Source: Candidatus Parcubacteria bacterium
Lineage (GTDB): Bacteria; Patescibacteriota; Minisyncoccia; Minisyncoccales; JAGLUP01
Assembly: GCA_023134715.1 (NCBI GenBank)
Contig: JAGLUP010000002.1
Coordinates: 79,906 to 143,905, forward strand
Direction: 5' to 3'
DNA: 64,000 nucleotides
Position 1 is the stretch's first letter; each line of letters starts with the position of its first letter. Shown here piece after piece: positions 7,016-60,946 of this stretch. The translations under genes and the position numbers were made by a program. The notes under the pieces were generated by a model that was given only the letters and a program-made list of their open reading frames with translations, did no database searches and was not told where the DNA came from.

Positions 7016-8854
7016 CTACCAAGCCAAGAAATTCCACCAAGGTTTTTTAACAGCCAAAACCTTGCCAGTTTCAGCATCAATCTTAGATTCAACTTTCATA
7101 GAAACAGGTATCAAGAAAAACAATTTTGCTTTTTTTGTCCCTTGGATTAAATAAATCGGTTTTTTTGCTTCTTCTTTGATCTCAATTTCTTTAATTGCTT
7201 TTTGGTCGGGAGTGCCCGAAACTGCCACTGCATCTGCTGGGGAAATATTAATTGGCTTTTTGCCATCAGAGGTTTTCATTAACAATTTAGATTCCTCGAT
7301 GACTAATTCTTGAGAACATTTCACTTGAACTGAAATATTAGGTGTTTCTAATATCACTCTCCCTCCTCCAGTATGAAGAACAACATCTTGGGATTGAAAT
7401 TCACCAGCTCTGAAAAACTCAATCTTACCAGTTGAGGTATCGTAGGCAATCCCTCCTTTTTTGTCGTCTTCTTCCTCGGACTTAGCGCTACAGATGACTT
7501 GGCCAGGATATGAAGCAGTTACTTCACATTCAGCGCCTTCGGGACATTCATAATAACTGCAGGGATTTTTCTTAGCGCATCTAAGTCCCAAACCGGGAAA
7601 TCTGTAACAGTTCAAATCCATGTTTTTAGGGCAAGGATTTAACGCATCACAAGTAATATTAGTTATATCAACGCCCCACTTACATTCGCCATCATATTTT
7701 TTAACTGCATCAGCTTCCATTAAAAAACAATTATTCATGTAAGTAATTCCATCACAGCCACAAACAGGTTTATAATAATCTGGACAAGGGCTTTGCCTTA
7801 CTTCGCAAGTTCCACTGATACCCTCGCAACATCCTTTAGAAGCAATTGCGTCCTCACACTTTTCATGCAGAAAACAATCATATTCAACATAATCTGTTGA
7901 TCCACATTCATTATCAGATAAACACTCCTTTCTGCAAACTATCTGCATTGGAAATGTGAGCTGAACCAAACCTTCAAATCCCTCTGGGCAAGGATAGTAA
8001 CTAAATGGGTTATCTGCCGCACACTTTGTACCAATTCCTGGAAATTCATAACAGCCTCCAATAAATGCGCACGTTGATTTTCCATAATCACTGATATCAC
8101 AGCTTACATTTGATATTTCTTTAATACACGGTCCATCATAATTCTTGAAAACTCGGTTTCTCTTTCTAAGGCAGTCATTATCATAGGTCACACTATCGCA
8201 TCCACAAACAGGTGAAATAATAGAAGAACAGATTGTCGGAATCTCTGTACATGTTCCAGCTTCAAGATCGCAAGGAAAATAATCACAGAATTCGCTATCT
8301 GCGCAATCATTGTCTAAACGGCAGTTCCCCGCACATACTACTTCTTTTGGAATCGTGAAAAAACCTTCTTTGACAATACAGGCAGAATTTTCAGATATTA
8401 TCGAACAATTAAAGTAATTGCAGGGATCTGATTCAGCGCATCTCGTGCCAATATTCGGAAACTTAATACATTCCAAGTCGCCAGGACAACTTGCTTGAGG
8501 GTCACAATAATGGCTAGATATTTGTTCAATACATTCTCCTCTGTAGTTCCCTGAAATTCCTGAAGCTTGTCTGTGGCAATCACTTTGGTAAACTTGTCCA
8601 TCGCATCCACATACAGGCCCGACAATTTCACATTGACTAGAATCAGGCTTTCTTACGCATATACCCTCATCTTCATTACAATTTTGGAATTCACAGAATT
8701 CTGTTATATCACAATCAGAATCTAAATAACATTGGGTTGATGCTTTAGTAAAGAAAATGCCAATAAAAGAAAAAAGCACTAAAAGAAAAACTAATAGTCC
8801 TAAAAGAAAGATATTTTTTGTTTTTAGCACAATGGCTAAATTTTTTATATTCAT
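7016..8854 (-). CDS. secreted/anchored Cys-rich protein with three Kazal-like modules
   Basis: N-terminal hydrophobic anchor LLGLLVFLLVLFSFIGIFF. Three PVCGCDGxxYxxxC motifs (CGCDGQVYQSDC, CGCDSVTYDNDC, CGCDGITYMNNC), each inside a repeated ~130-aa Cys-rich unit. Confidence 0.7.
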   Translation of the reverse strand: MNIKNLAIVLKTKNIFLLGLLVFLLVLFSFIGIFFTKASTQCYLDSDCDITEFCEFQNCNEDEGICVRKPDSSQCEIVGPVCGCDGQVYQSDCHRQASGISGNYRGECIEQISSHYCDPQASCPGDLECIKFPNIGTRCAESDPCNYFNCSIISENSACIVKEGFFTIPKEVVCAGNCRLDNDCADSEFCDYFPCDLEAGTCTEIPTICSSIISPVCGCDSVTYDNDCLRKRNRVFKNYDGPCIKEISNVSCDISDYGKSTCAFIGGCYEFPGIGTKCAADNPFSYYPCPEGFEGLVQLTFPMQIVCRKECLSDNECGSTDYVEYDCFLHEKCEDAIASKGCCEGISGTCEVRQSPCPDYYKPVCGCDGITYMNNCFLMEADAVKKYDGECKWGVDITNITCDALNPCPKNMDLNCYRFPGLGLRCAKKNPCSYYECPEGAECEVTASYPGQVICSAKSEEEDDKKGGIAYDTSTGKIEFFRAGEFQSQDVVLHTGGGRVILETPNISVQVKCSQELVIEESKLLMKTSDGKKPINISPADAVAVSGTPDQKAIKEIEIKEEAKKPIYLIQGTKKAKLFFLIPVSMKVESKIDAETGKVLAVKKPWWNFLAW

Positions 8855-12888: not shown

Positions 12889-12939
12889 AATGGAAGTTCC
12901 AAAAGGTCCTTCCTTTTTTATTTTCGTTGCTTAATCGTG

Positions 12940-12987
12940 AATCCGCCTTTTCGTAGAGGCGGATTTTTGGTATAATGAAATAATATG
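12940..12987 (+). promoter_or_regulatory. hairpin-terminator plus extended -10 module, leaderless start
   Basis: AATCCGCC-ttttcgtaga-GGCGGATT, TTTGGTATAAT (-10 at 12971-76), 8 nt, ATG 12985. Confidence 0.6.
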
Positions 12988-13272
12988 AAAAGAAAATTAA
13001 ATTTGATTATAAACATTATTTCTTTTTTCGTTTTTTTGTTTTCAGCATTTTCGGGACTTATTTTGTGGAAGATTTTTCCGTCTGGCAGCGGATTTCGCGG
13101 AGGCAGGGGAATCACAGAAGATAATATTTTCTTAGGTTTATTTCGCCGCGAATGGAGCGATATTCATATATATACCAGTTTAATTTTTGCTGCATTGGTC
13201 ATTATTCATTTGATTCTTCACTGGTCCTGGATTAAAAATATTCCTAAAATAATAAGGCAAAAAAATGGCTGA
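12985..13272 (+). CDS. DUF4405-like membrane protein
   Basis: Two TM helices; WSDIHIYTSLIFAALVIIHLILHWSW resembles DUF4405. Confidence 0.5.
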   Translation: MKRKLNLIINIISFFVFLFSAFSGLILWKIFPSGSGFRGGRGITEDNIFLGLFRREWSDIHIYTSLIFAALVIIHLILHWSWIKNIPKIIRQKNG

Positions 13273-27977: not shown

Positions 27978-28273
27978 TATTTCTAACTTAGCGTTCTAGA
28001 ACGCCAACCCAACGCCAACTTTTCCAACCAATTTTCTTTCATTTTTTCTCTTTCTTTCTTTTTCCTGTTTCCCCTTTTAACCCCTATTTTACACTATAAA
28101 TACACTTACCACTCCCGAGGGGCGAGGATGCGAACGGAGAGATAACGGAGTGAGCGTCCGAGCCCGAGGATACAATAAGTCAGGGGAAATTTAGTGGATA
28201 GCTATAAATACTAAATTAAATAAAATTAAACCAAGTAAAAAATTGAAGAAAAATTGATTGAGGAATAAAATTT

Positions 28274-32011: not shown

Positions 32012-32205
32012 ACCCCAGCAAATTAAATTTAAAAATCGTGGATGCGGCTTTTGGTAGAGGCGGTTTTTTTGTTTTCAGGGGAGTAAAAAATTTGACAGAG
32101 GTTAGAAAGTTTGCTTGAATAAAAATACTCAAAACAATGATCTTTTAAAATTACATATGGAGAGTTTTGAAGAATTGAAAAGTTATTGAAAATAAAACTT
32201 GAAAA

Positions 32206-43572: not shown

Positions 43573-43694
43573 TTGACAAAATTGCGCTGATACGGTATAT
43601 TTAAAATAACAATGGAGGATAAAAAGTTGAATTTTCAACTTTTAAAAATAAGTTCATTGTAAATAAAATAATGAAATGAAAAAGAGGTGTAAAA
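43573..43694 (+). promoter_or_regulatory. promoter plus conserved structured leader, copy 1
   Basis: TTGACA-17-TATATT; AATAACAATGGAGGAT; hairpin AAAAGTTGA-attt-TCAACTTTT (43622-43); TTCATT/AATGAA (43653-75); SD AGAGGTG. Confidence 0.6.
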
Positions 43695-44192
43695 ATGGAT
43701 GAAAATGAAATAAAAAACGAAATAGAAACGGATGTTTCTGATATTCCTTCAGGAGCAGCATTGAAAGCAATTAAATATTTTACGGATGATTATTTAACGC
43801 AGGGCGAATTACAAGAAAAAACAAGAGACGACCAAAAACCTGTTGCTATAGCAATAGTGAATAAAAGCGGTAATTTAATAGCTTTTATTGGTATGGATAA
43901 GGTGAATCCGATTGATGTAGAATTGAGTATTGCTAAGGCCTGCGCAGCTCAGAAGTTTGAAGCAGATACTATTGACCTAAGAGATCTGAGGCGTTTAACA
44001 TCTAATCGACCTTACCTCTATGGGGGAGGAATTACCATAAGAAACATGGAAGGAAAAGTCATCGGAGCAATAGGCGTAAGCGGTAGAGATACTGGAGAAG
44101 AAAACCATAAAATAGTAGTTGATGAGGCTCTGTATCATTTAAAAACAGTTTTGATCTCGCAAAAAAAAATGAGGGACCATATTAAGAGATGA
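43695..44192 (+). CDS. GlcG/HbpS-like (DUF336) protein
   Basis: PVAIAIVNKSGNLIAF..., GGGITIRNMEGKVIGAIGVSGRD. Confidence 0.7.
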   Translation: MDENEIKNEIETDVSDIPSGAALKAIKYFTDDYLTQGELQEKTRDDQKPVAIAIVNKSGNLIAFIGMDKVNPIDVELSIAKACAAQKFEADTIDLRDLRRLTSNRPYLYGGGITIRNMEGKVIGAIGVSGRDTGEENHKIVVDEALYHLKTVLISQKKMRDHIKR

Positions 44193-44280: not shown

Positions 44281-44331
44281 AATAATTTTAAAAACTTCGA
44301 ATATCAGCAATATTTTTATATTCTGTTAGGT

Positions 44332-44374
44332 CGGCTTTTAGTAAAGCCGGTTTTTTGGTAGAATAAAGTATATG
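44332..44374 (+). promoter_or_regulatory. hairpin plus TTTTTTGGTAGAAT module with a leaderless 18-codon sORF
   Basis: CGGCTT-ttagta-AAGCCG, T6, GGTAGAAT (-10 at 44359-64), 7 nt, ATG 44372 (MDYMNNLKNKLEYKKEGH*, to 44428). Confidence 0.5.
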
Positions 44375-44511
44375 GATTATATGAATAATTTAAAAAATAA
44401 ACTTGAATACAAAAAAGAAGGGCATTAACCTTCGGACGAACCTTAGGTGTGTCCCTTCATCGTGATGTTTTTATTATATTAAATTACAAGACATATTGTC
44501 AATAGCTATCA

Positions 44512-51200: not shown

Positions 51201-51789
51201 AAAAAAGATTTCTTTGTCAGATTTAAAATTTGGTAAAAATAATACTATTGAATTTTTAAAAACTAATCACAATAATCTACCTAATAATCTTTATTATGAC
51301 TTGGCTTTGAAATATTATCTTCCTGCTGACCAAATTCCTCCTCGAGATGAAGGATTTAGCATCAGTAAAGAGTTTTATAAATTAGATGATAAAGAAAACA
51401 AAAACCCGCTGAGAGAAGCCAAAGTAGGAGATGTTCTTAGGGGACATATTCAAATAACAATACCGACATCCAGAAATTTTACGGCTATTGAAGATTATAT
51501 TCCGGCTGGAATGGAAATTGTTAATCTAAGTTTAGCAACTGAAGAAAAATCTTTAAGATTACAAGAAAAAGAATTACAAGGAAGAGAGCTGCGTCCTGAT
51601 TTTAAGGAAATCCGCGATGACAGAGTTTTCCTTTTCAAAGAAACTCTTAAGCCAGGGGTATATGAATTTGATTATTATGTAAGGGCCTTAATAAAGGGCA
51701 AATTTATTCATTTGCCTGCAATAGCTTCAGAAATGTATTTTCCGGAAAACTTTGGCCGAACCGCCGGAACATATTTTGAAATAAAATAG
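45283..51789 (+). CDS. bacterial alpha-2-macroglobulin family protein with thioester motif
   Basis: 2168 aa, N-terminal anchor, repeated Ig-like MG-type regions, YPYGCSEQIASKL (CxEQ thioester). Confidence 0.85.
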   Translation: MYEQFSNLDQPEKISRSKKSKIFALIAIAALIIGGFYFWSKKQETAKPYIQGYRLVNEKISQSAAIAIYLPDGLEKSNTEKNIEFFPEIEGNWLKSDQGREIIFKPKEKLELNRYYSVELTLSQLDEISAQSIQFVSAQSEAGESIIKADFLVVENPEIIAIFPKENSEAPENSEITIVFNRPMVPLTTLGYLEEKDIPVEITPATEGRFKWITTRNLQFIPKERLKRASNYKVKIKSGMVSMDNLEVRGQEIEFFTRKLRYLNLTQGRIIYNQPISIYFNQPVDLEKIKNEISLENITTGEKTPFIIEYAEGQNQNELKEKKDEVFGNINISDVTAAVFNKLGFEWPFNKDEKEKQANESIIRIYNKKDKFGREKFWDFANSYSLKINKSYPIEGDIILNEMRIVNVNVSDVIERISAESERTKYAAPDFFDPQGKLWINFYEEIDLNKSEINVQKLKHIGYGEKCKDETQTISSNIECEKIADKKKILITFEQEKIGLGETLEINFKKIVNLSNLTINREPIIKHIISYPKFKLLKTSPENNSSQTNLTEFIICSNSPISAPAREDYKNYLKANLDYEINYWGNSWRVGYISSREVCDIDEFHTSIKYGLMPLADYSLELKLEDVFEQKLSRSLKFSTGAMPSFHLNFYHLQKNYNVTSPEKTKLTYAAENMDYVNIEICKLSPLNFLYYLDKKPKYYESGRSILNCQEIVRDKIYLPEKYWIKNYFKIDINDYFKEPLGHYILTLSHPNYRRQWGEKRQVYERSYLTITNLAVAEKKINSQYANYGTNETLNAKQLNELRNFYWVTNLDNLEPVPNASIKLYQKNLTPAGTYTTNDKGIALTQVITDLQGVIISKGKDSTVIPRYESRLDYASSAFSAKKIYLYTDKPIYRPGQEVFLKGIYRIGYDGSYEIYSGKKVNLKVYNSKGDEILNKDLEINDFGTLNTNLILDKGAPLGMYRACIDKFSCIYFDIQEYVPAPFEIKIETDEQEYISKDTVDLEIEANYYFGVPLEGGTVSYTISSQDYYFDRFSNGWFNFGSGWYYRYPHYYGEKFILRNETSLDANGKAKISQLFDLQKLFKNKEDRKSKIIVVDITIRNPQGQSVSAQKSFIVHNGEFYLGLKADKSFGPKNEKFNLKIKTVDTQGKETKIKNITLNLYKVKWIYNKRLGSDGGYHYEWEKQKDLVKTYNFNTNNQGNFTQELKISQEGSYEAEAEAEDKRGNLISSSYNLYIYGAKQVSIKPTKDTKLEIEAEKTDLKVGETAKIIIKSPYEKAKALISIERGKIFDYEIKNIKGNLYSYEFKIKEEHLPNVYVSVLLLSSEPEIKFGKIEFKINTERKELNIEVKSNKTQYLPGEKVALDILVKDYKGRPVSAELSLAVVDLSVLALKGNPKKNPLIFFYGGFPLTVSTASNIKNILIEFPIATKGGGGGADEALAKKKRGIFKETAFWQAVVRTDENGKALVEFILPDNLTTWQAETIGLTKDTKFGVNYQEFLTKKELMLVPLKPRFVVPGDTFYIGAKIFNQSKDKQKLNVKFDSQTLILENDKIEKKITINSNKTDTVYFQIKAPPQFEIGEHKFILSVKNQKLEDTVEQSINITRNNTYEVTATANYTQNNVSKEYVFLPDDIVKDRGNLSLKASATLAVFLSDSLNYLLKYPYGCSEQIASKLNAIAIVQKGLNLPNISDKFNLEKIKYRDKEYSIPEVVEIGLAELYNNQRSDGGFSYWKHGKSDFYLTLHLTDTLHNLSLAGFEINQNSLERAADYLDKEIRKGKWKYENESQYKNRIILTSYTLFRLPNFKDNYFLKQKIIQIAQNDLFIQEQISNNSLAYLAILSTKDFDANLKNKIFTVLDNRINIDSRGAFLETNKNIIWRYYETSIKNTALYLKALAVDKRDNQILDKVLRWLLNSRAKDGAWGSTNNTITVVDSFTDFLVWKKETESNFGLDLFINEQKQGDFNFNPETILDQFRKKISLSDLKFGKNNTIEFLKTNHNNLPNNLYYDLALKYYLPADQIPPRDEGFSISKEFYKLDDKENKNPLREAKVGDVLRGHIQITIPTSRNFTAIEDYIPAGMEIVNLSLATEEKSLRLQEKELQGRELRPDFKEIRDDRVFLFKETLKPGVYEFDYYVRALIKGKFIHLPAIASEMYFPENFGRTAGTYFEIK

Positions 51790-51792
51790 CTT

Positions 51793-51813
51793 CCACGGAG
51801 CTTAGCTCCGTGG
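51793..51813 (+). terminator. hairpin after the macroglobulin gene
   Basis: CCACGGAGC-tta-GCTCCGTGG; no T-run. Confidence 0.4.
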
Positions 51814-51823
51814 GTCCAAGCTA

Positions 51824-51926
51824 TTGACAAATTTCGCTTTTATGGTATAATTATAAATATTAGGAGAGAGAAACTGATTTTAATTATTCACGAAAAACAG
51901 ACCTCTCCTTTGGATGTCTGTTTTTC
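51824..51926 (+). ncRNA. promoter plus short terminated transcript (sRNA or attenuator)
   Basis: TTGACA (51824-29), 16 nt, TGgTATAAT (51846-51). AGGAGAG (51862-68) is complementary to CTCTCCT (51903-09), which lies in the loop of the terminator AAAAACAGAC/GTCTGTTTTT (51893-925). Confidence 0.45.
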
Positions 51927-51938
51927 TTTATCTCTCAT

Positions 51939-52124
51939 CAGCTCTTTGAAACAAAAAAATAACCCGTCAAAAGTCCTTCGGGCAATTAGGCGGGCAAAAA
52001 AGAAAGAGAAACCCGCCTTTGTTTAAACTTCGGCGAGGCAAGGCATTCTCCTGCTGATTGAGGTTCTAATTTTTGGACCCCAGCCAGCAGGAGAATGATA
52101 TTTTATCCCTGCGAGGTGAAAAAG
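51939..52124 (+). promoter_or_regulatory. conserved structured leader, cassette A
   Basis: 74 nt identical to 52655-52728. CTCCTGCTG (52048-56) pairs with CAGCAGGAG (52085-93) and GGTTC/GGACC lies inside. SD GAGGTG. Confidence 0.6.
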
Positions 52125-52496
52125 ATGGAATTACGTAATTTAATAGAAAGGGCAACCATTGCAGGATTGATTAAATGGGAACCTACAGAAGAGCAAGAAG
52201 TAAGAGAGAATGGTCGTATAATGCGAGGATATAAGGCAAATGTCGGAAACTTTGAGATTCGAACTATTGTTCGAAAAACTAAAAAGAAATCTTTTTGGGG
52301 TCCCACTTTTGTTTATGGAGTTGCTATAAAAGATAACTCAGGAAGAGAGAAAATTTTGACTAGTGACCCGAAAGAGCTTCCCGGAAAAAAAGAAGAATAT
52401 ATTTGCGTTATTGTATGGGGAGTCCAGCATGAGGTAGAAAATAAAGACTTGCTTACTGCCATTAAACAACAACTAGCCCAAATGACCATGTCTTAA
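52125..52496 (+). CDS. small hypothetical protein (cassette A)
   Basis: ATG 52125 sits 6 nt after the conserved GAGGTG. The track start 52095 lies inside the conserved leader. Confidence 0.5.
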   Translation: MELRNLIERATIAGLIKWEPTEEQEVRENGRIMRGYKANVGNFEIRTIVRKTKKKSFWGPTFVYGVAIKDNSGREKILTSDPKELPGKKEEYICVIVWGVQHEVENKDLLTAIKQQLAQMTMS

Positions 52497-52505
52497 CTTG
52501 ACACA

Positions 52506-52613
52506 CTTTCTCTTTCTTTATTTTTTCGAGCTCAGAATAACAAACTTGATAAGAATTTACCGAGACCCGACCTCGGTAAATTCATAAAAAGTGGGGTTGT
52601 GGGTTGGAAAAAG
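52506..52613 (+). repeat. conserved 3' trailer, cassette A
   Basis: CTTTCTCTTTCTTTATTTTTTCGAG (52506-30); hairpin TTTACCGAG..CTCGGTAAA; GTGGGGTTGTGGGTTGGAAAAAG (52591-613). Confidence 0.65.
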
Positions 52614-52654
52614 CCCTGAACTACATAGAATTCAGGGTAAAGCGAAAATAAAAA

Positions 52655-52866
52655 CAGCTCTTTGAAACAAAAAAATAACCCGTCAAAAGTCCTTCGGGCA
52701 ATTAGGCGGGCAAAAAAGAAAGAGAAACAACCGAGAAGCCATCCCGGTAGACATTTCTGTAGATTGTTCTCCTGCTGATTGAGGTTCTAAATGTAACGAG
52801 AACTGTTCTCGTTACATTGGACCCCAGCCAGCAGGAGGATAATATTATTCCTGCGAGGTGAAAAAG
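52655..52866 (+). promoter_or_regulatory. conserved structured leader, cassette B
   Basis: Same blocks as A. The GGTTC/GGACC helix carries an extra 12-bp perfect hairpin (52791-52817). Confidence 0.6.
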
Positions 52867-53100
52867 ATGGGAGATAAAACGAAAATTACGGGAAAAATGA
52901 CTGAAGAGAGAAAATGGGAAATTGGCTATAAAGCTCTGAAAGAAAAATTTAAGAGTTCTGCGGGCGCTGGACTTATTGGGAAAAATGTTAAAAGAGAAGT
53001 AGGCAATATAAGCCAAGCTATTGAGGTCGACATAGACGAGCTAATGGAGTTTGCGGAAATTATGACCAGAGAGCTTGTCGATGAGACCTATAGCAAATAA
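52867..53100 (+). CDS. small hypothetical protein (cassette B)
   Basis: ATG 52867 sits 6 nt after the conserved GAGGTG; 77 aa; unrelated to the cassette A protein. Confidence 0.5.
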   Translation: MGDKTKITGKMTEERKWEIGYKALKEKFKSSAGAGLIGKNVKREVGNISQAIEVDIDELMEFAEIMTRELVDETYSK

Positions 53101-53230
53101 AAAAACAAAAGAGAAGGCAAGGTTGAAGCGTTGCTTCCTAAAAGGGTAATTGTGCTTCCTTTGTGAAGTATTATCACAAAGCAAAGACAGAACAAGAACC
53201 TCTCCTCCCTTCCTATTATTTTTTTTAAAA

Positions 53231-53289
53231 CTTTTCTCTTTCTTTATTTTTTCGAGTCCATAAACTGTGGGGTTGTGGGTTGGAAAAAG
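53231..53289 (+). repeat. conserved 3' trailer, cassette B
   Basis: CTTTTCTCTTTCTTTATTTTTTCGAG (53231-56) and GTGGGGTTGTGGGTTGGAAAAAG (53267-89). Confidence 0.65.
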
Positions 53290-53307
53290 GTAAAATAAAA
53301 AATAAAT

Positions 53308-55374
53308 TTATTCGTTGACTATGATGGTTATTGTTTGCCGGGAGCTATTAGCGCTCTCGGCTTTTATTTTGTATAATCCGATTTCTTGAGGAATAAAAAT
53401 AGCGGTCTGGCCTTGGTCTAAAAATTTTCCATCAAGAATCCACTTAACTCTTTCTTTAGCTTTTAAAATTATTTTTGTGTTATTTTCCAGCAAGAAAGTA
53501 TCTCCATGATGAGGACTTAAGATTAAATCAAAATCTTGTTCTTTTAAAATGTTTTGTGATTTTTCATAATCATCATTTGGTAGACCATATTCAATATCAA
53601 TGCCATTGTAAAATTCTTCTAAAAGATTAAATTCAAAAGGAGTTTTTTTATTATATTCTGAATTAAGAAGCAACTCCATTGTCTCTGCCCATATCCTGCC
53701 CGCGCCAACTTGGCCAGTAATGCTTTCCATTGGCGTATTATCAGCGTTTCCCACCCATACGCCGACTAAAAAATCAGGGGTGTAACCAATTACCCAACTG
53801 TCGTGAAAATCCCGGGAAGTCCCGGTTTTTAGAGCGTAATTTTTCTGAAATAAATTAAAATCGCTTTTTAATCCGAATTGCTCAATGCCTGTTTTTCTAT
53901 CGTTTAAAATTATATTAATTAACTGAATATATTCCGGCTCGGTTATTTTTTTTGGTAAAGATAAACTATTATTATTTTGAAAAATTTTCAATTCTTTTAA
54001 AATTCCATTGTTAGGGAAGATAGTGAAATATTTGGCTAAATCTAATAAGCTCATTTCTAATGACCCAAGAGCTATTCCCAGTTGATAATTATTTAAATCT
54101 TGAACCGGTTTAATCTCTAATTCTTTTTCTAAAAAATTATAAAAATTTTCTAATTCAATGTATTCCAAAACCTTTACTGCTGGAACGTTTAAACTATTAC
54201 TTAAAGCGTAATGCAGGTTCACTTCGCCGCGATATTTATAATCAAAATTTTTAGGATAAAGAGGAAAGCCGATAGCAGTAATATATTTATATTCTCTGTC
54301 ATCCACTAAAGTATAAGGCCTTAAACCTTTTTCAAACGCTTTGAGATAAATAAAGGGTTTAATGGTTGAACCAATGGGTCTTGGCTTTGTCAACATATTA
54401 ATTTGATTTCCTGATTCAAAAGATTTTGGAGCAGGCGAACCAATTAAAGCCAATAATTCACTCTCCGGAAGTTTAATTATGACAACAGCTCCGCTGTTAG
54501 CGTTTTTTGGTTTTAAATCTTGTATATTTCTTTTGACAATTTCTCTTATTTTCTCAGTTAGCTGTTTATCTATGGTTGCTTGCTGGATTTGAGAATGATT
54601 ATTAATTAAATCTTGAAGCTCAAAATAAGAATCGCTGGAATGAGAATATTTTTGCATATTTTCTTTTATAACAAAAACGTCTTGAAAAATAATACTTTGG
54701 CTGTCTGTATTTAATCTTTGAGTTAAGAATAAAGCAATTTCTTTATTTTTAATTTTGGCTGGATTATTTTGAGTAGGACTGCTGATACTCGCAAGGAGCT
54801 GTAGAATCTGTCCTTGAGTTAGCATGTCCGGCGATAAATTAAAATAAAGCTGGCTTGCCTCTGACAATCCCTGAACCTGATTTCCAAAATAAATAGAATT
54901 AGCATACATTTTTAAAATAGTTTCTTTGCTTTGGAAAATTTCTAAACTTAAGCTATAAAATGCCTCAATAATTTTATTTTTTAAATTTCTGTCTGATTCT
55001 TTTTCTAAAAGAATTTTTACTATTTGCTGGGTAATAGTGCTGGAAGCTCTTTTCCTGCCAAAATTAAAATACCCCAAGCCAGCTTGAAACGCGGCCCAGG
55101 GATTAACGCCAAAATGATAATAGAAATACCTGTCTTCTTTTTCAATTAAAAGTTTTTTAAATTCAGAAGGAACTTCATCTAAATATTCAGCCCAATATCC
55201 TTTTTTGTTTGGTTTAATAAAAATTATTTCTCCTGCTCTGTCTTTGATTATTATAGAATTTTGCTGATTATAAACATCTATTAATTGTTTTTGCGCGACA
55301 TAAGCAAATATCAAAAAACAGGCAAAACCAATGCCTAAAATTATTAAAAATGTTTTGAAATTATATTTCAGCAT
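53308..55374 (-). CDS. pbpC: bifunctional penicillin-binding protein, PBP1C-like
   Basis: GT51 motifs EDRYFYYHFGVN and ASTITQQ; transpeptidase STIKPF, SLN, KTGTS; C-terminal Ig-like tail typical of PbpC. Confidence 0.75.
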   Translation of the reverse strand: MLKYNFKTFLIILGIGFACFLIFAYVAQKQLIDVYNQQNSIIIKDRAGEIIFIKPNKKGYWAEYLDEVPSEFKKLLIEKEDRYFYYHFGVNPWAAFQAGLGYFNFGRKRASSTITQQIVKILLEKESDRNLKNKIIEAFYSLSLEIFQSKETILKMYANSIYFGNQVQGLSEASQLYFNLSPDMLTQGQILQLLASISSPTQNNPAKIKNKEIALFLTQRLNTDSQSIIFQDVFVIKENMQKYSHSSDSYFELQDLINNHSQIQQATIDKQLTEKIREIVKRNIQDLKPKNANSGAVVIIKLPESELLALIGSPAPKSFESGNQINMLTKPRPIGSTIKPFIYLKAFEKGLRPYTLVDDREYKYITAIGFPLYPKNFDYKYRGEVNLHYALSNSLNVPAVKVLEYIELENFYNFLEKELEIKPVQDLNNYQLGIALGSLEMSLLDLAKYFTIFPNNGILKELKIFQNNNSLSLPKKITEPEYIQLINIILNDRKTGIEQFGLKSDFNLFQKNYALKTGTSRDFHDSWVIGYTPDFLVGVWVGNADNTPMESITGQVGAGRIWAETMELLLNSEYNKKTPFEFNLLEEFYNGIDIEYGLPNDDYEKSQNILKEQDFDLILSPHHGDTFLLENNTKIILKAKERVKWILDGKFLDQGQTAIFIPQEIGLYKIKAESANSSRQTITIIVNE

Positions 55375-58515: not shown

Positions 58516-58537
58516 TTATTACTAACTTATTTTAATC

Positions 58538-58573
58538 CGTAACAAATCTCGCCGATCGGCGAGATTTGTTATG
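58538..58573 (+). terminator. long palindromic hairpin, copy 1
   Basis: AACAAATCTCGCCGATCGGCGAGATTTGTT is perfect (58541-70), followed by TTTTG. Confidence 0.65.
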
Positions 58574-58611
58574 TTTTGTGCGTTTAATAGTCGAGTTTTG
58601 AATTATTTAAT

Positions 58612-58742
58612 TTGACAAACAGCATATTATTTGTTATTGTTAGAATAACAATAAACGATGAGTGATAGAAAAAGTTAAATTTAACTTTTCTTAAACGAGT
58701 TCATTGTAAATAAAATAATGAAATGAAAAAGGAGGTAATAAA
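58612..58742 (+). promoter_or_regulatory. promoter plus conserved structured leader, copy 2
   Basis: TTGACA, TGtTAGAAT (58638-46); hairpin AAAAGTTAA/TTAACTTTT (58670-89); TTCATT/AATGAA (58700-22); SD GGAGGT. Confidence 0.6.
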
Positions 58743-59234
58743 ATGGGTAAAAGAGTGGATAAAGAAATTGCAAATATGGATAAAAAAATAGAAACGGATG
58801 TTTCTGATATTTCTACAGAAGCGGCAGAGGAAATAATTAGAAAATTTATAAGAGAAGAGTGGATGCGCGCAACGAAAGAAGCTGGAGAAAATGAGTTCGA
58901 CATGGTGAAACATAAAGAAAAAAAACCCGTTGCCATGGCAATAGTAGATAGAAACGGCAAGCTAAAAGCTTTCATTAGTCTGGATGGAACAATTCCAACG
59001 GCTTCGGAACAGAGTATTCTTAAGGCCTACGAAACTTTTACATTTAGGGCAAATGCCATGTATTTCTCTAATGGAGGAATTCTGGTAAAAAATACCAAAG
59101 GTCAAGTTATCGGAGCGATAGGAGTGAACGGTAGAGACTCAATGCGAGAAAACCATGAATTAGCTATCCTTGCCCTGGAGATATTTGAAAGCTTTCAACG
59201 CACTATAAAAATGAAAATTAGAAACCAAAAATAA
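58743..59234 (+). CDS. GlcG/HbpS-like (DUF336) protein, paralogue of 43695..44192
   Basis: KKPVAMAIVDRNGKLKAF, GGILVKNTKGQVIGAIGVNGRD; shares the IETDVSDI N-terminal stretch at nucleotide level. Confidence 0.7.
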   Translation: MGKRVDKEIANMDKKIETDVSDISTEAAEEIIRKFIREEWMRATKEAGENEFDMVKHKEKKPVAMAIVDRNGKLKAFISLDGTIPTASEQSILKAYETFTFRANAMYFSNGGILVKNTKGQVIGAIGVNGRDSMRENHELAILALEIFESFQRTIKMKIRNQK

Positions 59235-59274
59235 GGTTTCTCTTTTTTTATTTTGTAAAAATAAAATCAGCAAA

Positions 59275-59318
59275 CCGGCTTTTAGTAAAGGCGGTTTTTT
59301 GGTAGAATAAAGATAATG
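59275..59318 (+). promoter_or_regulatory. hairpin plus TTTTTTGGTAGAAT module, leaderless start
   Basis: CCGGCTT-ttagta-AAGGCGG (6/7 bp), T6, GGTAGAAT (-10 at 59303-08), 7 nt, ATG 59316. Confidence 0.6.
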
Positions 59319-59657
59319 AAAAAATATACATTACTTATTAGAAAAGAAGATAAAGAAATATTTAATTCAATAAAAAGCGGGGATAAAATAATAGAAACTC
59401 GCGCTGCGACTAAAAAATATCAGAACATTAAAAATGGAGATATTTTAGTTTTTGTATGCGAAAAAGAAAAAATTGAGAAAGAAGTAGATACAGTAAATTT
59501 TTTCAAAAACATAGAAGATATGCTAAAGATTATTAATTTTAAAAAAATAATTCCATTTGCTTTTTCAAAAAAAGAAATAAAAAATATTCTTTATAGTTTT
59601 CCAAATAATCGTGAAAAAATAGAAAAATTTGGATTGATTGCGTTAGAATTAAAATAA
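59316..59657 (+). CDS. ASCH-like (PUA-fold) domain protein
   Basis: FNSIKSGDKIIETRAATKKYQNIKNGDILVF resembles the ASCH N-terminal motif. Confidence 0.45.
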   Translation: MKKYTLLIRKEDKEIFNSIKSGDKIIETRAATKKYQNIKNGDILVFVCEKEKIEKEVDTVNFFKNIEDMLKIINFKKIIPFAFSKKEIKNILYSFPNNREKIEKFGLIALELK

Positions 59658-59672
59658 TATGCTAATTTAAAT

Positions 59673-59710
59673 CCGTAACAAATCAGGTCGATCGACCTGA
59701 TTTGTTACGG
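59673..59710 (+). terminator. long palindromic hairpin, copy 2
   Basis: CCGTAACAAATCAGGTCGATCGACCTGATTTGTTACGG, 38 nt, perfect. Confidence 0.65.
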
Positions 59711-59730
59711 TTTGATTAAAGAGTTTTTAT

Positions 59731-60224: not shown

Positions 60225-60305
60225 CTCAAATATATAGAAAGGAATATCTAAAAAAGATATTCCGTTTATTTTTTTAGATTTTTTCTAAAACAAAAAATTA
60301 GCGAT

Positions 60306-60349
60306 CCGCCTTTCAGTAAGGGCGGTTTTTTGGTAGAATAAAGATAATG
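60306..60349 (+). promoter_or_regulatory. hairpin plus TTTTTTGGTAGAAT module, leaderless start
   Basis: CCGCC-tttcagtaag-GGCGG, T6, GGTAGAAT (-10 at 60334-39), 7 nt, ATG 60347. Confidence 0.6.
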
Positions 60350-60946
60350 GCTAAATTAAAAAAGCTAATAGAAAAATTTTCAGGAAGCTACATATTAATA
60401 AGCGTTGTTGGACCGCATGCTGGCGAATTAGAAAAAGAAATATTCCAACGCAAAATTAAAGATATTGATAATGTCGGATTTACGTTTTGGATAATTAGAT
60501 CTTTCCAAGCAAAATTAGAAATGGTACAAACTATTTGCAAAAAAGCAAAAATTGAAAATAAAAATGTATTTTGTATTTTTATTAAACCCTCAATAAAAGG
60601 AGGGGCAACGCCTACAAAAAACAGCTTATCAGCAAAATATTATTCCCAAGATAAAAAGCAATGGAAAAAAATACCAAACAGATTGAGTCCTGTTACTGGA
60701 AAAATTGACAAGACCAGCTATGCTTTATTATTTAATAAATTAGAATTAATTAGTGATGAAATTGATTTATGGAATTATGCTGATTTTTTTAATCAAGAAA
60801 AACCTATAAGAATATTTCGGGGCGGTTCAACTTTATGCGCAATTAAAAAAGATGTAAAAAACCAAAACAATAAGATTAAATCTCGTTATAGAAAAATAAT
60901 CGCCATTGGAAAACTTTCTAAACCATTTTGCGTCTGGTTAAAATAA
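60347..60946 (+). CDS. hypothetical protein
   Basis: 199-aa ORF; no family recognised. Confidence 0.45.
   Translation: MAKLKKLIEKFSGSYILISVVGPHAGELEKEIFQRKIKDIDNVGFTFWIIRSFQAKLEMVQTICKKAKIENKNVFCIFIKPSIKGGATPTKNSLSAKYYSQDKKQWKKIPNRLSPVTGKIDKTSYALLFNKLELISDEIDLWNYADFFNQEKPIRIFRGGSTLCAIKKDVKNQNNKIKSRYRKIIAIGKLSKPFCVWLK

Follow-up and report, generated by a model that had tools for sequence, protein, structure and literature searches.

In Staphylococcus aureus, RNase III cleaves a long hairpin upstream of the Shine-Dalgarno sequence (SD) of the cspA mRNA, which leaves a shorter 5' hairpin on an mRNA that is stabler and better translated (PMC3386247). Pairing between the 5' and 3' untranslated regions (UTRs) of a single mRNA is described for icaR of the same species, where the 3' UTR pairs with the SD itself (PMC3868564). 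Elements that resemble both are found in a 64,000-nucleotide stretch of a Candidatus Parcubacteria metagenome-assembled genome (contig JAGLUP010000002.1, referred to here as the window), in which two tandem small-gene cassettes, A and B, each carry a long 5' UTR with a hairpin, the leader helix, close to the SD. The original prediction for this helix, made from the sequence alone, was of a riboswitch-like structure with a variable-length insertion and a possible expression platform. By computational folding the helix is a real, very stable sense-strand RNA hairpin in the 5' UTR of both cassettes. It is very probably not a riboswitch, and is most likely a structural mRNA element, acting in processing, stability or translation, within a conserved UTR scaffold.

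The coordinates and pairings first given for the helix were all correct on re-checking. The outer arms, CTCCTGCTG at 52048-52056 and 52769-52777 and CAGCAGGAG at 52085-52093 and 52829-52837, enclose an inner GGTTC/GGACC helix. In cassette A this inner helix is closed by an 8-nt loop (52067-52074), and in cassette B by a perfect tip hairpin with palindrome arms of 14 nt (52790-52803 and 52805-52818); the 12 bp previously given for this tip is conservative, since it folds as 13 bp. The full helix is longer than had been described, with 21 pairs in A (52044-52097) and 36-40 pairs in B (52759-52848), and each copy contains two symmetric A/C 1x1 mismatches. Helix A folds at -33.5 kcal/mol, compared with -13.7 +/- 2.7 for shuffled sequences (z -7.2), and helix B at -48.6 kcal/mol, compared with -17.6 +/- 3.0 (z -10.4); for neither helix was any of 200 shuffles as stable. 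In B the additional tip of 13 bp is best read as a palindrome that extends the loop and is tolerated there. Perfect palindromic inserts lie at 52790-52818, 52544-52592 and 52614-52637, as hairpin tips or spacers, and each is missing from the other copy, which suggests recent palindrome growth at the DNA level or tiny palindromic insertions. Such an origin is likely for the tip inserts, and leaves the G-U pairs described next unexplained.

Three base pairs at the foot of the helix are not the same in A and B, with pairing preserved at each of them. A double change replaces C52044-G52097 of A with U52765-A52841 of B, and two one-sided changes convert A52045-U52096 to G52766-U52840 and U52047-A52094 to U52768-G52838. 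The resulting G-U pairs can form in sense-strand RNA only. Helix B folds at -48.6 kcal/mol in the sense orientation and at -42.5 in the antisense orientation, and sense folding is the stronger in four of the five helices compared here and below (for instance -37.1 versus -22.3 and -24.8 versus -13.6), markedly so in L023 gene 1 and in L015. A double-stranded DNA operator was considered and rejected, given that the half-sites are spaced 23 nt differently in the two copies. The earlier suggestion of a structured RNA rather than protein-binding DNA is upheld by this spacing difference, by the pairing preserved through G-U changes and by the sense/antisense asymmetry of the analogous helices.

The labels L014, L015, L021, L022, L023, L025 and L028 denote loci or contigs of other Parcubacteria with which the window was compared. 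A shared scaffold is found among them, in which a CAGCTCTTTGAAA-like box is followed by a purine (R) tract, a leader hairpin, the SD, an open reading frame (ORF), a complementary pyrimidine (Y) tract and a covarying 3' hairpin. The hairpin that separates the R tract from the SD measures 21 bp in window cassette A, 21 bp plus extensions in B, 23 bp in L015, 26 bp in L023 gene 1, 24-25 bp in L023 gene 2 and 6 bp in L025, and there is none in L021; in all cassettes the distance from the leader helix to the downstream SD is 6-15 nt. Between the paralogous helices of L023, 13 pairs are identical, four have one-sided changes and five have double changes, with pairing retained throughout, and there is homology between the helix of L015 and those of L023. 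As judged from these sequences, the apparent selection at the leader position is for sense-strand pairing and for a length near two helical turns, not for sequence. Therefore, the helix would be a generic structural element rather than a ligand sensor.

In a riboswitch, or another ligand- or temperature-sensing leader, the helix, perhaps together with a 74-nt block upstream of it, would be the sensor and the GCAGGA/UCCUGC pairing the platform. The cassettes do resemble riboswitches in having a long structured 5' UTR (~230-270 nt) near the SD, a variable distal stem and an alternative pairing of the 3' arm that recurs beside the SD, and the 74-nt block is perfectly conserved between the copies and includes a sense-strand-specific hairpin. 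However, a cmscan search of the whole window against Rfam 15 gave nothing at gathering score, and relaxing the threshold to E up to 10 for 51780-53320 gave chance matches to microRNA hairpins only. No ligand-pocket architecture was found in what is a plain single hairpin of 21 bp, in which the two A/C mismatches are 1x1 and the loop or tip is not conserved; an aptamer core or conserved unpaired core, a junction or pseudoknot, a balanced switch and a coherent set of downstream genes are all lacking, the downstream genes being unrelated. L021 is missing both the helix and the hairpin of the 74-nt block, and the latter is also absent from L015, L023 and L025. Across genomes there is no sequence conservation at the leader position, the main helix exceeds the alternative pairing in stability by 24-39 kcal/mol, and the 100% identity of the 74-nt blocks points to recent duplication rather than constraint.

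Relatives of the helix sequence were not found by exact seed in genome, metagenome, viral, phage or plasmid collections. A scan of species-representative genomes with the exact seed GGACCCCAGCCAGCAGGAG gave 11 GC-rich chance matches, none with the 5' arm, and scans of viral contigs gave nothing or one chance match within a coding region. The gapped inner-helix pattern was not found in metagenomes, and a 20-mer of the 74-nt block had one chance match, in an unrelated Bacteroidetes-like contig. Given selection on pairing rather than sequence, unrelated downstream genes and no junction, a riboswitch is ruled out as far as computation can do so, and a sensing leader of any kind is judged very improbable. 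What stands of the riboswitch-like description is a sense-strand RNA structure with a recurring alternative pairing.

That alternative pairing, between GCAGGA of the 3' arm and UCCUGC just 5' of the SD, is present in both copies as had been claimed, at -9.4 kcal/mol in A and -9.8 kcal/mol in B. The pre-SD stretch of the window thereby repeats part of the 5' arm (UCCUGC), and at the same place L015 has an 8-nt repeat, AGGAUAGC, and L023 gene 1 a 9/12 repeat. In four of five cases, the hairpin between the 3' arm and the pre-SD repeat outperforms 98-99% of shuffled sequences; for L015 and L023 gene 1 the shuffle fractions are 0.008-0.016. Because the main helix is so much the stronger and is transcribed first, the alternative hairpin, which forms later during transcription, would be relevant only once the 5' arm is gone. 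In neither cassette does the predicted fold pair the SD, which stays free in both states. The proposed expression platform is therefore not borne out, given that the two folds are not energetically balanced, the SD is never sequestered and no U tract follows helix B.

By analogy with cspA, the leader helix may well be the target of an endonuclease specific for double-stranded RNA, of the RNase III type, or at least a stability or insulation stem, with subsequent refolding of the 3' arm; this reading is preferred but tentative. In the proposed mechanism, R:Y pairing would close the mRNA 5' to 3', and the duplex of ~21-26 bp, or about two helical turns, would be cut by an RNase III-type nuclease independently of sequence. 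Cleavage would detach the part of the 5' UTR that holds the 5'-3' closing helix. With the 5' arm removed, the 3' arm would refold with the 5'-arm repeat that abuts the SD, such that the mature mRNA would begin with a small 5' hairpin and a free SD directly after it, as in the S. aureus cspA leader. The stem length suited to RNase III-type enzymes, ~20 bp or more and nearly uninterrupted, is reached in A (21 bp) and B (36-40 bp), and in the analogues of 23, 24-25 and 26 bp.

The likeness to cspA lies in a long hairpin just upstream of the SD of a small gene, which for cspA is highly expressed, in a duplex of about two turns that fits a double-strand-specific nuclease and in the short hairpin that could form beside the SD after cleavage. 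The long hairpin of cspA hinders ribosome binding (PMC3386247), whereas the SD of the cassettes is predicted to be free in both states. The two leaders also differ in that they have no sequence relationship, that cleavage is a proposal for the cassettes and that the cassette hairpin is one part of a scaffold in which the 5' and 3' UTRs are predicted to pair.

Several points weigh against the proposed mechanism and the comparisons from which it draws. The window holds two copies of the helix only, both inside the duplicated cassette, and as these are nearly identical, covariation within the window helix is limited to three pairs. A covariance model of the L015 and L023 helices, R2, gave no match to the window helix with filters off; as there is no sequence homologue, the equivalence of the window helix to those of L015 and L023 is one of position and shape. 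Homologues of ORF A, the gene of cassette A, occur in L021 and L028 without a leader hairpin, which is thus dispensable for the gene family. L023 gene 2 has no comparable pre-SD repeat or alternative pairing, and the alternative pairing is a post hoc observation. The R and Y tracts are of low complexity, and their cognate and non-cognate duplex energies overlap; the comparison of these energies is not decisive, given that low complexity and the differing lengths of the segments. Finally, a six-frame search of the window and related loci, which make up a small part of the genome, gave no RNase III signature of the ERLEFLGD type.

The main rival is a passive stabilising or insulating stem that is never cleaved, which would insulate the SD from the R and Y tracts, stack on the R:Y helix and slow 5'-to-3' or endonucleolytic decay. 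The unpaired SD in the predicted folds of both cassettes and the placement of the helix 6-15 nt upstream of the SD agree with such a stem, and hairpin lengths from 0 to 40 bp suit a non-specific role. A passive stem does not account for the grouping of four independent helices within 21-26 bp, nor for a pre-SD repeat that recurs, and stability this high is unnecessary for insulation alone. It is considered possible but rather unlikely.

The helix could also be a weak intrinsic terminator between a strong promoter and the ORF, that is, a transcription attenuator, given its GC-rich stem, the AUAUUUUAU that comes next in A and the terminator-like GGCGGG..CCCGCC followed by UUUGUUU immediately upstream in A. 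Helix B, in contrast, is followed by AUUAUUCC with no U tract, and directly downstream of the analogues in L015 and L023 come CAAAGG, ACGCUA and GUGAAAA. Neither helix was reported by a terminator scan, and no antiterminator partner was found for the 5' arm. The attenuator and operator readings both fit poorly, and an attenuator is judged highly improbable.

The host genome is a Nealsonbacteria-like member of the Parcubacteria, and the PBP1C encoded beside the cassettes has homologues in Nealsonbacteria. The cassettes, with ORF A (KAS79_00730) and ORF B (KAS79_00735), lie between a gene for a 2168-aa alpha-2-macroglobulin (A2M) and the convergent PBP1C gene. Given that A2M and PBP1C are 0-133 nt apart in three relatives (PBP 70-74% identical), the 1.5-kb stretch 51790-53307 is a lineage-specific insertion. 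The flanks are identical between A and B, and the ORFs are unrelated. In each cassette the 74-nt block is followed by a variable 33-38 nt, the leader helix, the SD/start block, the ORF, the Y tract and a hairpin. The block with SD and start codon common to both is (T)CCTGCGAGGTGAAAAAGATGG, the Y tract, TTTCTCTTTCTTTATTTTTT, is complementary to the purine tract AAAAAAGAAAGAGAAAC, and the closing hairpin terminates in GGAAAAAG. Ahead of cassette A lies a consensus promoter, and ahead of B a weaker one. The features are as follows.

51824..51851, + strand: consensus sigma-70 promoter driving cassette A (TTGACA, 16 nt, TGgTATAAT; 12/12 matches, with TG extension)
51862..51938, + strand: ORF-less module behind the promoter (fold -22.9 kcal/mol, z -3.3)
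51939..52012, + strand: 74-nt 5' block A, 100% identical to 52655-52728
52044..52097, + strand: leader helix A (21 bp, two A/C mismatches, 8-nt loop; -33.5 kcal/mol, z -7.2)
52106..52127, + strand: pre-SD repeat (U)CCCUGC, SD and ATG of cassette A, a conserved block (SD GAGGUGA 52113-52119; ATG 52125)
52125..52496, + strand: ORF A, 123 aa, of an uncharacterised Parcubacteria protein family
52507..52526, + strand: Y tract A, UUUCUCUUUCUUUAUUUUUU, forming inverted repeats with the R tract; R:Y paired in the whole-cassette centroid fold
52522..52612, + strand: 3' hairpin A (UUUUUUC..stem..GGAAAAA; -35.6 kcal/mol, z -4.2), with a palindrome inserted at 52544-52592
52604..52654, + strand: inter-cassette spacer, with promoter-like TTGGAA, 16 nt, TAGAAT at 52604-52631 (9/12 match)
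52655..52728, + strand: 74-nt 5' block B (hairpin 52679-52710, R tract 52712-52728), 100% identical to the A block
52759..52848, + strand: leader helix B (same 21-bp core at 52763-52843, extended base included; 13-bp tip 52790-52818; z -10.4)
52849..52869, + strand: pre-SD repeat UCCUGC, SD and ATG of cassette B (repeat 52849-52854; SD GAGGUGA 52855-52861; ATG 52867)
52867..53100, + strand: ORF B, 77 aa, no homologue; predicted three-helix bundle with no significant fold match
53233..53252, + strand: Y tract B, inverted repeat with the R tract; R:Y paired in the centroid fold
53248..53288, + strand: 3' hairpin B, member of the conserved 3' hairpin family

The ORF-less module consists of a purine tract, AGGAGAGAGAAAC (51862-51874), a hairpin with 14-nt arms (51892-51926) and a U/pyrimidine-rich tail (51927-51938), and in its predicted fold the purine tract pairs with the tail around the hairpin. 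This module could be a short small RNA (sRNA), a terminator-like attenuator or a remnant cassette. The 74-nt block A contains the box CAGCTCTTTGAAAC, a hairpin CCCGUC..GGCGGG (51963-51994) and the R tract AAAAAAGAAAGAGAAAC (51996-52012); its hairpin folds on the sense strand only (z -2.5 versus -0.5). A conserved peptide in this block was considered and rejected: the candidate 38-aa ORFs with TTG starts, at 51910 and 52662, lack an SD and do not begin or end at matching positions in the two copies. In 3' hairpin A, base pairs match those of the conserved 3' hairpin family, with the insert in addition. The extra hairpin at 52614-52637 overlaps the spacer promoter and has no equivalent after cassette B.

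The presence of unrelated ORFs in one scaffold would be accounted for by an element that acts at the DNA level, as the footprint of a mobile or recombinogenic process (MITE-like, that is, resembling a miniature inverted-repeat transposable element, integron-attC-like, or palindrome growth by template switching). That the two-cassette block is an insertion with identical flanks around unrelated ORFs, and that the perfect palindromic inserts at three hairpin tips look recent, agrees with this. However, there is no target-site duplication at the helix, and no further copies were found in the window or in any collection, nor any additional helix copy in ~3 kb of extra sequence past the window. Reading of the sequence shows neither RYYYAAC/GTTRRRY core sites nor extrahelical bases, and no recombinase is found among the Pfam-annotated genes of two 20-kb tables (42.1-62.5 and 51.0-64.0 kb). 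The G-U pairs and the sense/antisense asymmetry, moreover, indicate selection at the RNA level. A DNA-level element is regarded as improbable.

Integron attC sites offer a likeness of this kind, with an imperfect palindrome of 54-90 nt, a variable tip and tandem cassettes of unrelated orphan ORFs between near-identical non-coding flanks. The cassette helix differs in lying 5' of the ORF beside the SD, in the last cassette having no downstream copy and in its G-U pairs, which point to RNA-level selection. An attC site was rejected given that the helix ends, CATTCTCC and GGAGAATG, hold no core sites, that the helix has 1x1 mismatches rather than bulges and that it precedes the ORF; no integrase is found among the Pfam-annotated genes of the locus tables covering 42.1-64.0 kb. 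A MITE was likewise rejected, with no direct repeat at the helix flanks and two copies only, inside the duplicated cassette. A blastn search with the whole 1.5-kb insertion against phages and plasmids gave no match. In L014, the A2M-PBP1C intergenic region (7971-8105) has GC-rich nested hairpins of its own (CCCTGCCTCG..CGAGGCAGGG and others), and the site seems prone to gaining structured inserts.

Neither ORF A nor ORF B has a match in Pfam, PHROG or PADLOC. In a word-indexed search ORF A matched itself only, whereas a full phmmer search against 1.84 billion representatives gave 35 homologues of 110-158 aa at 30-45% identity; the family profile has no match in Pfam or among PDB sequences. A homologue search with ORF B found none. 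AlphaFold models of the two proteins are of low to moderate confidence, with no significant Foldseek match to PDB. The ORF A family is thus one of uncharacterised Parcubacteria proteins.

Through the ORF A homologues, cassettes that share the box, R tract, SD, Y tract and 3' hairpin with those of the window were located in L021, L023 and L025. The box, with the consensus (C/T)AG(C/T)TCTTT.AAA followed by the purine tract, occurs in the window at 51939-52012 and 52655-52728, in L015, in L023 (twice) and in L025, and in L021 as box only. In L021 a promoter (TTGACA, 17 nt, TGgTATAAT) is followed by CAGCTCTTTGA, 11 nt and GAGGTGAAAAAAGAcaATG, and downstream of the ORF a pyrimidine tract is followed by TTTTTTCGAGCTCAC..GTGAGCTGGAAAAAG; box, SD and 3' hairpin are shared, and the leader helix is absent. 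In L023 both the ORF A homologue and the hydrolase gene that follows it have the full scaffold, with a purine tract that ends in AAAAAC and a long leader hairpin. L025 is an array of small genes with the same modules, with a 6-bp hairpin only ahead of its ORF A homologue. A complete, solitary cassette was found by way of the 3' hairpin model in L015, a close relative of the window organism, with a promoter, AGTTCTTTTGAAAC, the purine tract AGGGAGAGAGAAA, a 23-bp hairpin, AGGAGGA and an 83-aa ORF, followed by a pyrimidine tract, the 3' hairpin and a terminator. Outside the window the scaffold precedes a hydrolase and other small ORFs, and the downstream genes are unrelated.

The scaffold is absent from L022 and L028, which have other lineage-specific repeated promoter/terminator modules instead. 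In L028 (500-1640) a hairpin GCCCGAGGT..ACTTTTCGGGC is fused to TTGACA around small genes that include an ORF A homologue, and in L022 (4260-5480) GGTTCCAAGTTCGTCCCACCG repeats surround small genes that also include one. It seems general in these bacteria for small genes to be surrounded by repeated regulatory modules. No Rfam match to the scaffold was obtained, and a targeted literature search found no report of it.

The 3' hairpin has the form UUUUUUC-stem-CAUAAU..UUGUG-stem-GAAAAAG, with a pyrimidine tract ahead of it. An RNAalifold alignment of seven sequences from four genomes gives 18 consensus pairs, seven of them with compensatory changes, and the 3' hairpin is thus a conserved structured motif with genuine covariation. 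A covariance model, R1, was built from these seven copies; cassette B is among the training sequences, and its score of 52.6 bits is a match by construction. One further copy outside the training set was found with R1, in L015, at 31 bits.

In the whole-cassette centroid folds of both A and B the leader helix is kept and the purine tract is paired with the pyrimidine tract. Complementarity between the tracts recurs with differing sequences, over 13 bp in the window, 18 bp in L015 and 12 and 11 bp in L023. As in icaR, a pyrimidine-rich 3' UTR is complementary to a purine-rich 5' UTR, which is predicted for both cassettes and recurs in L015 and L023. In contrast to icaR, the partner predicted for the 3' UTR of the cassettes is not the SD but the purine tract, located 5' of the leader helix.

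Fold-back inhibition is also a feature of the hok mRNA, which encodes a small hydrophobic toxin and has an antisense RNA. A hok-like type I toxin mRNA was rejected for the cassettes: fold-back is predicted, but the ORFs are hydrophilic, at 77 and 123 aa, and no antisense gene was identified. The early and late mRNAs of phage T7 contain intercistronic RNase III sites with a characteristic internal loop and conserved sequence, and hairpins of the repetitive extragenic palindromic (REP) type are intercistronic stabilisers. The cassettes are similar in having strong repeated hairpins between tandem, probably co-transcribed genes, with shape kept and sequence not, and with leader and 3' hairpins on either side of each ORF. 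They differ from T7 in lacking both a shared sequence at the leader position and any phage context.

A broader proposal, which is doubtful at present, is that both cassettes represent a "closed-loop" type of mRNA cassette, not described before and common among Parcubacteria. Such a portable promoter/UTR scaffold would comprise the 5' box, a purine tract paired to a 3' pyrimidine tract, a leader hairpin of two turns, a pre-SD repeat and a 3' hairpin that covaries. It would carry unrelated small ORFs, be insertable at new chromosomal sites and be switched on by processing of the leader helix, and the ORF-less module 51862-51938 might be an sRNA whose purine tract competes for the 3' pyrimidine tracts.

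Other regulatory repeats were noted in the window and in the compared contigs. The motif CCAAGCTATTGA(ACCATTAC) lies just upstream of, or fused to, the -35 element of strong promoters in three Parcubacteria contigs (window 51816-51827; L021 860-879; L022 4414-4433 and 4883-4902), which makes it a candidate upstream promoter element or regulator site. A terminator hairpin, CGGCTTTTAGTAAAGCCGG, followed immediately by TTTTTTGGTAGAAT, an extended -10 promoter, forms a repeated intergenic module in the window (12931-13016, 32032-32072, 44319-44404, 59263-59348 and 60294-60379), such that a terminator and the next promoter appear to be fused in this genome. A long intergenic region at 27978-28273 has C-rich repeats, CCAACCCAACGCCAAC, a pyrimidine tract like the Y tract of the cassettes (28044-28063) and a GC-rich stretch (~28100-28190) in an otherwise AT-rich genome; the region matches nothing in Rfam and is a possible structured RNA. 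Further repeats of regulatory DNA within the genome include leaders ~81% identical upstream of two HbpS-like paralogues (43622-43782 and 58669-58848) and a repeated hairpin, AATCCGTAACAAATC..GATTTGTTA (58526-58578 and 59662-59714).

The helix itself is an ordinary kind of element, a structural leader hairpin, and should not be listed among riboswitch candidates; the scaffold around it is conserved across several Parcubacteria. Bacteria of the Candidate Phyla Radiation, whose genomes are tiny and which do not grow in culture on their own, encode many small proteins with no assigned function, and to our knowledge almost nothing is known of their post-transcriptional control. The R1 model of the 3' hairpin is a simple handle for finding such cassettes in metagenomes. 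The scaffold, if real, would be a lineage-specific route to stable, well-translated mRNAs for small genes, and perhaps also to moving such genes.

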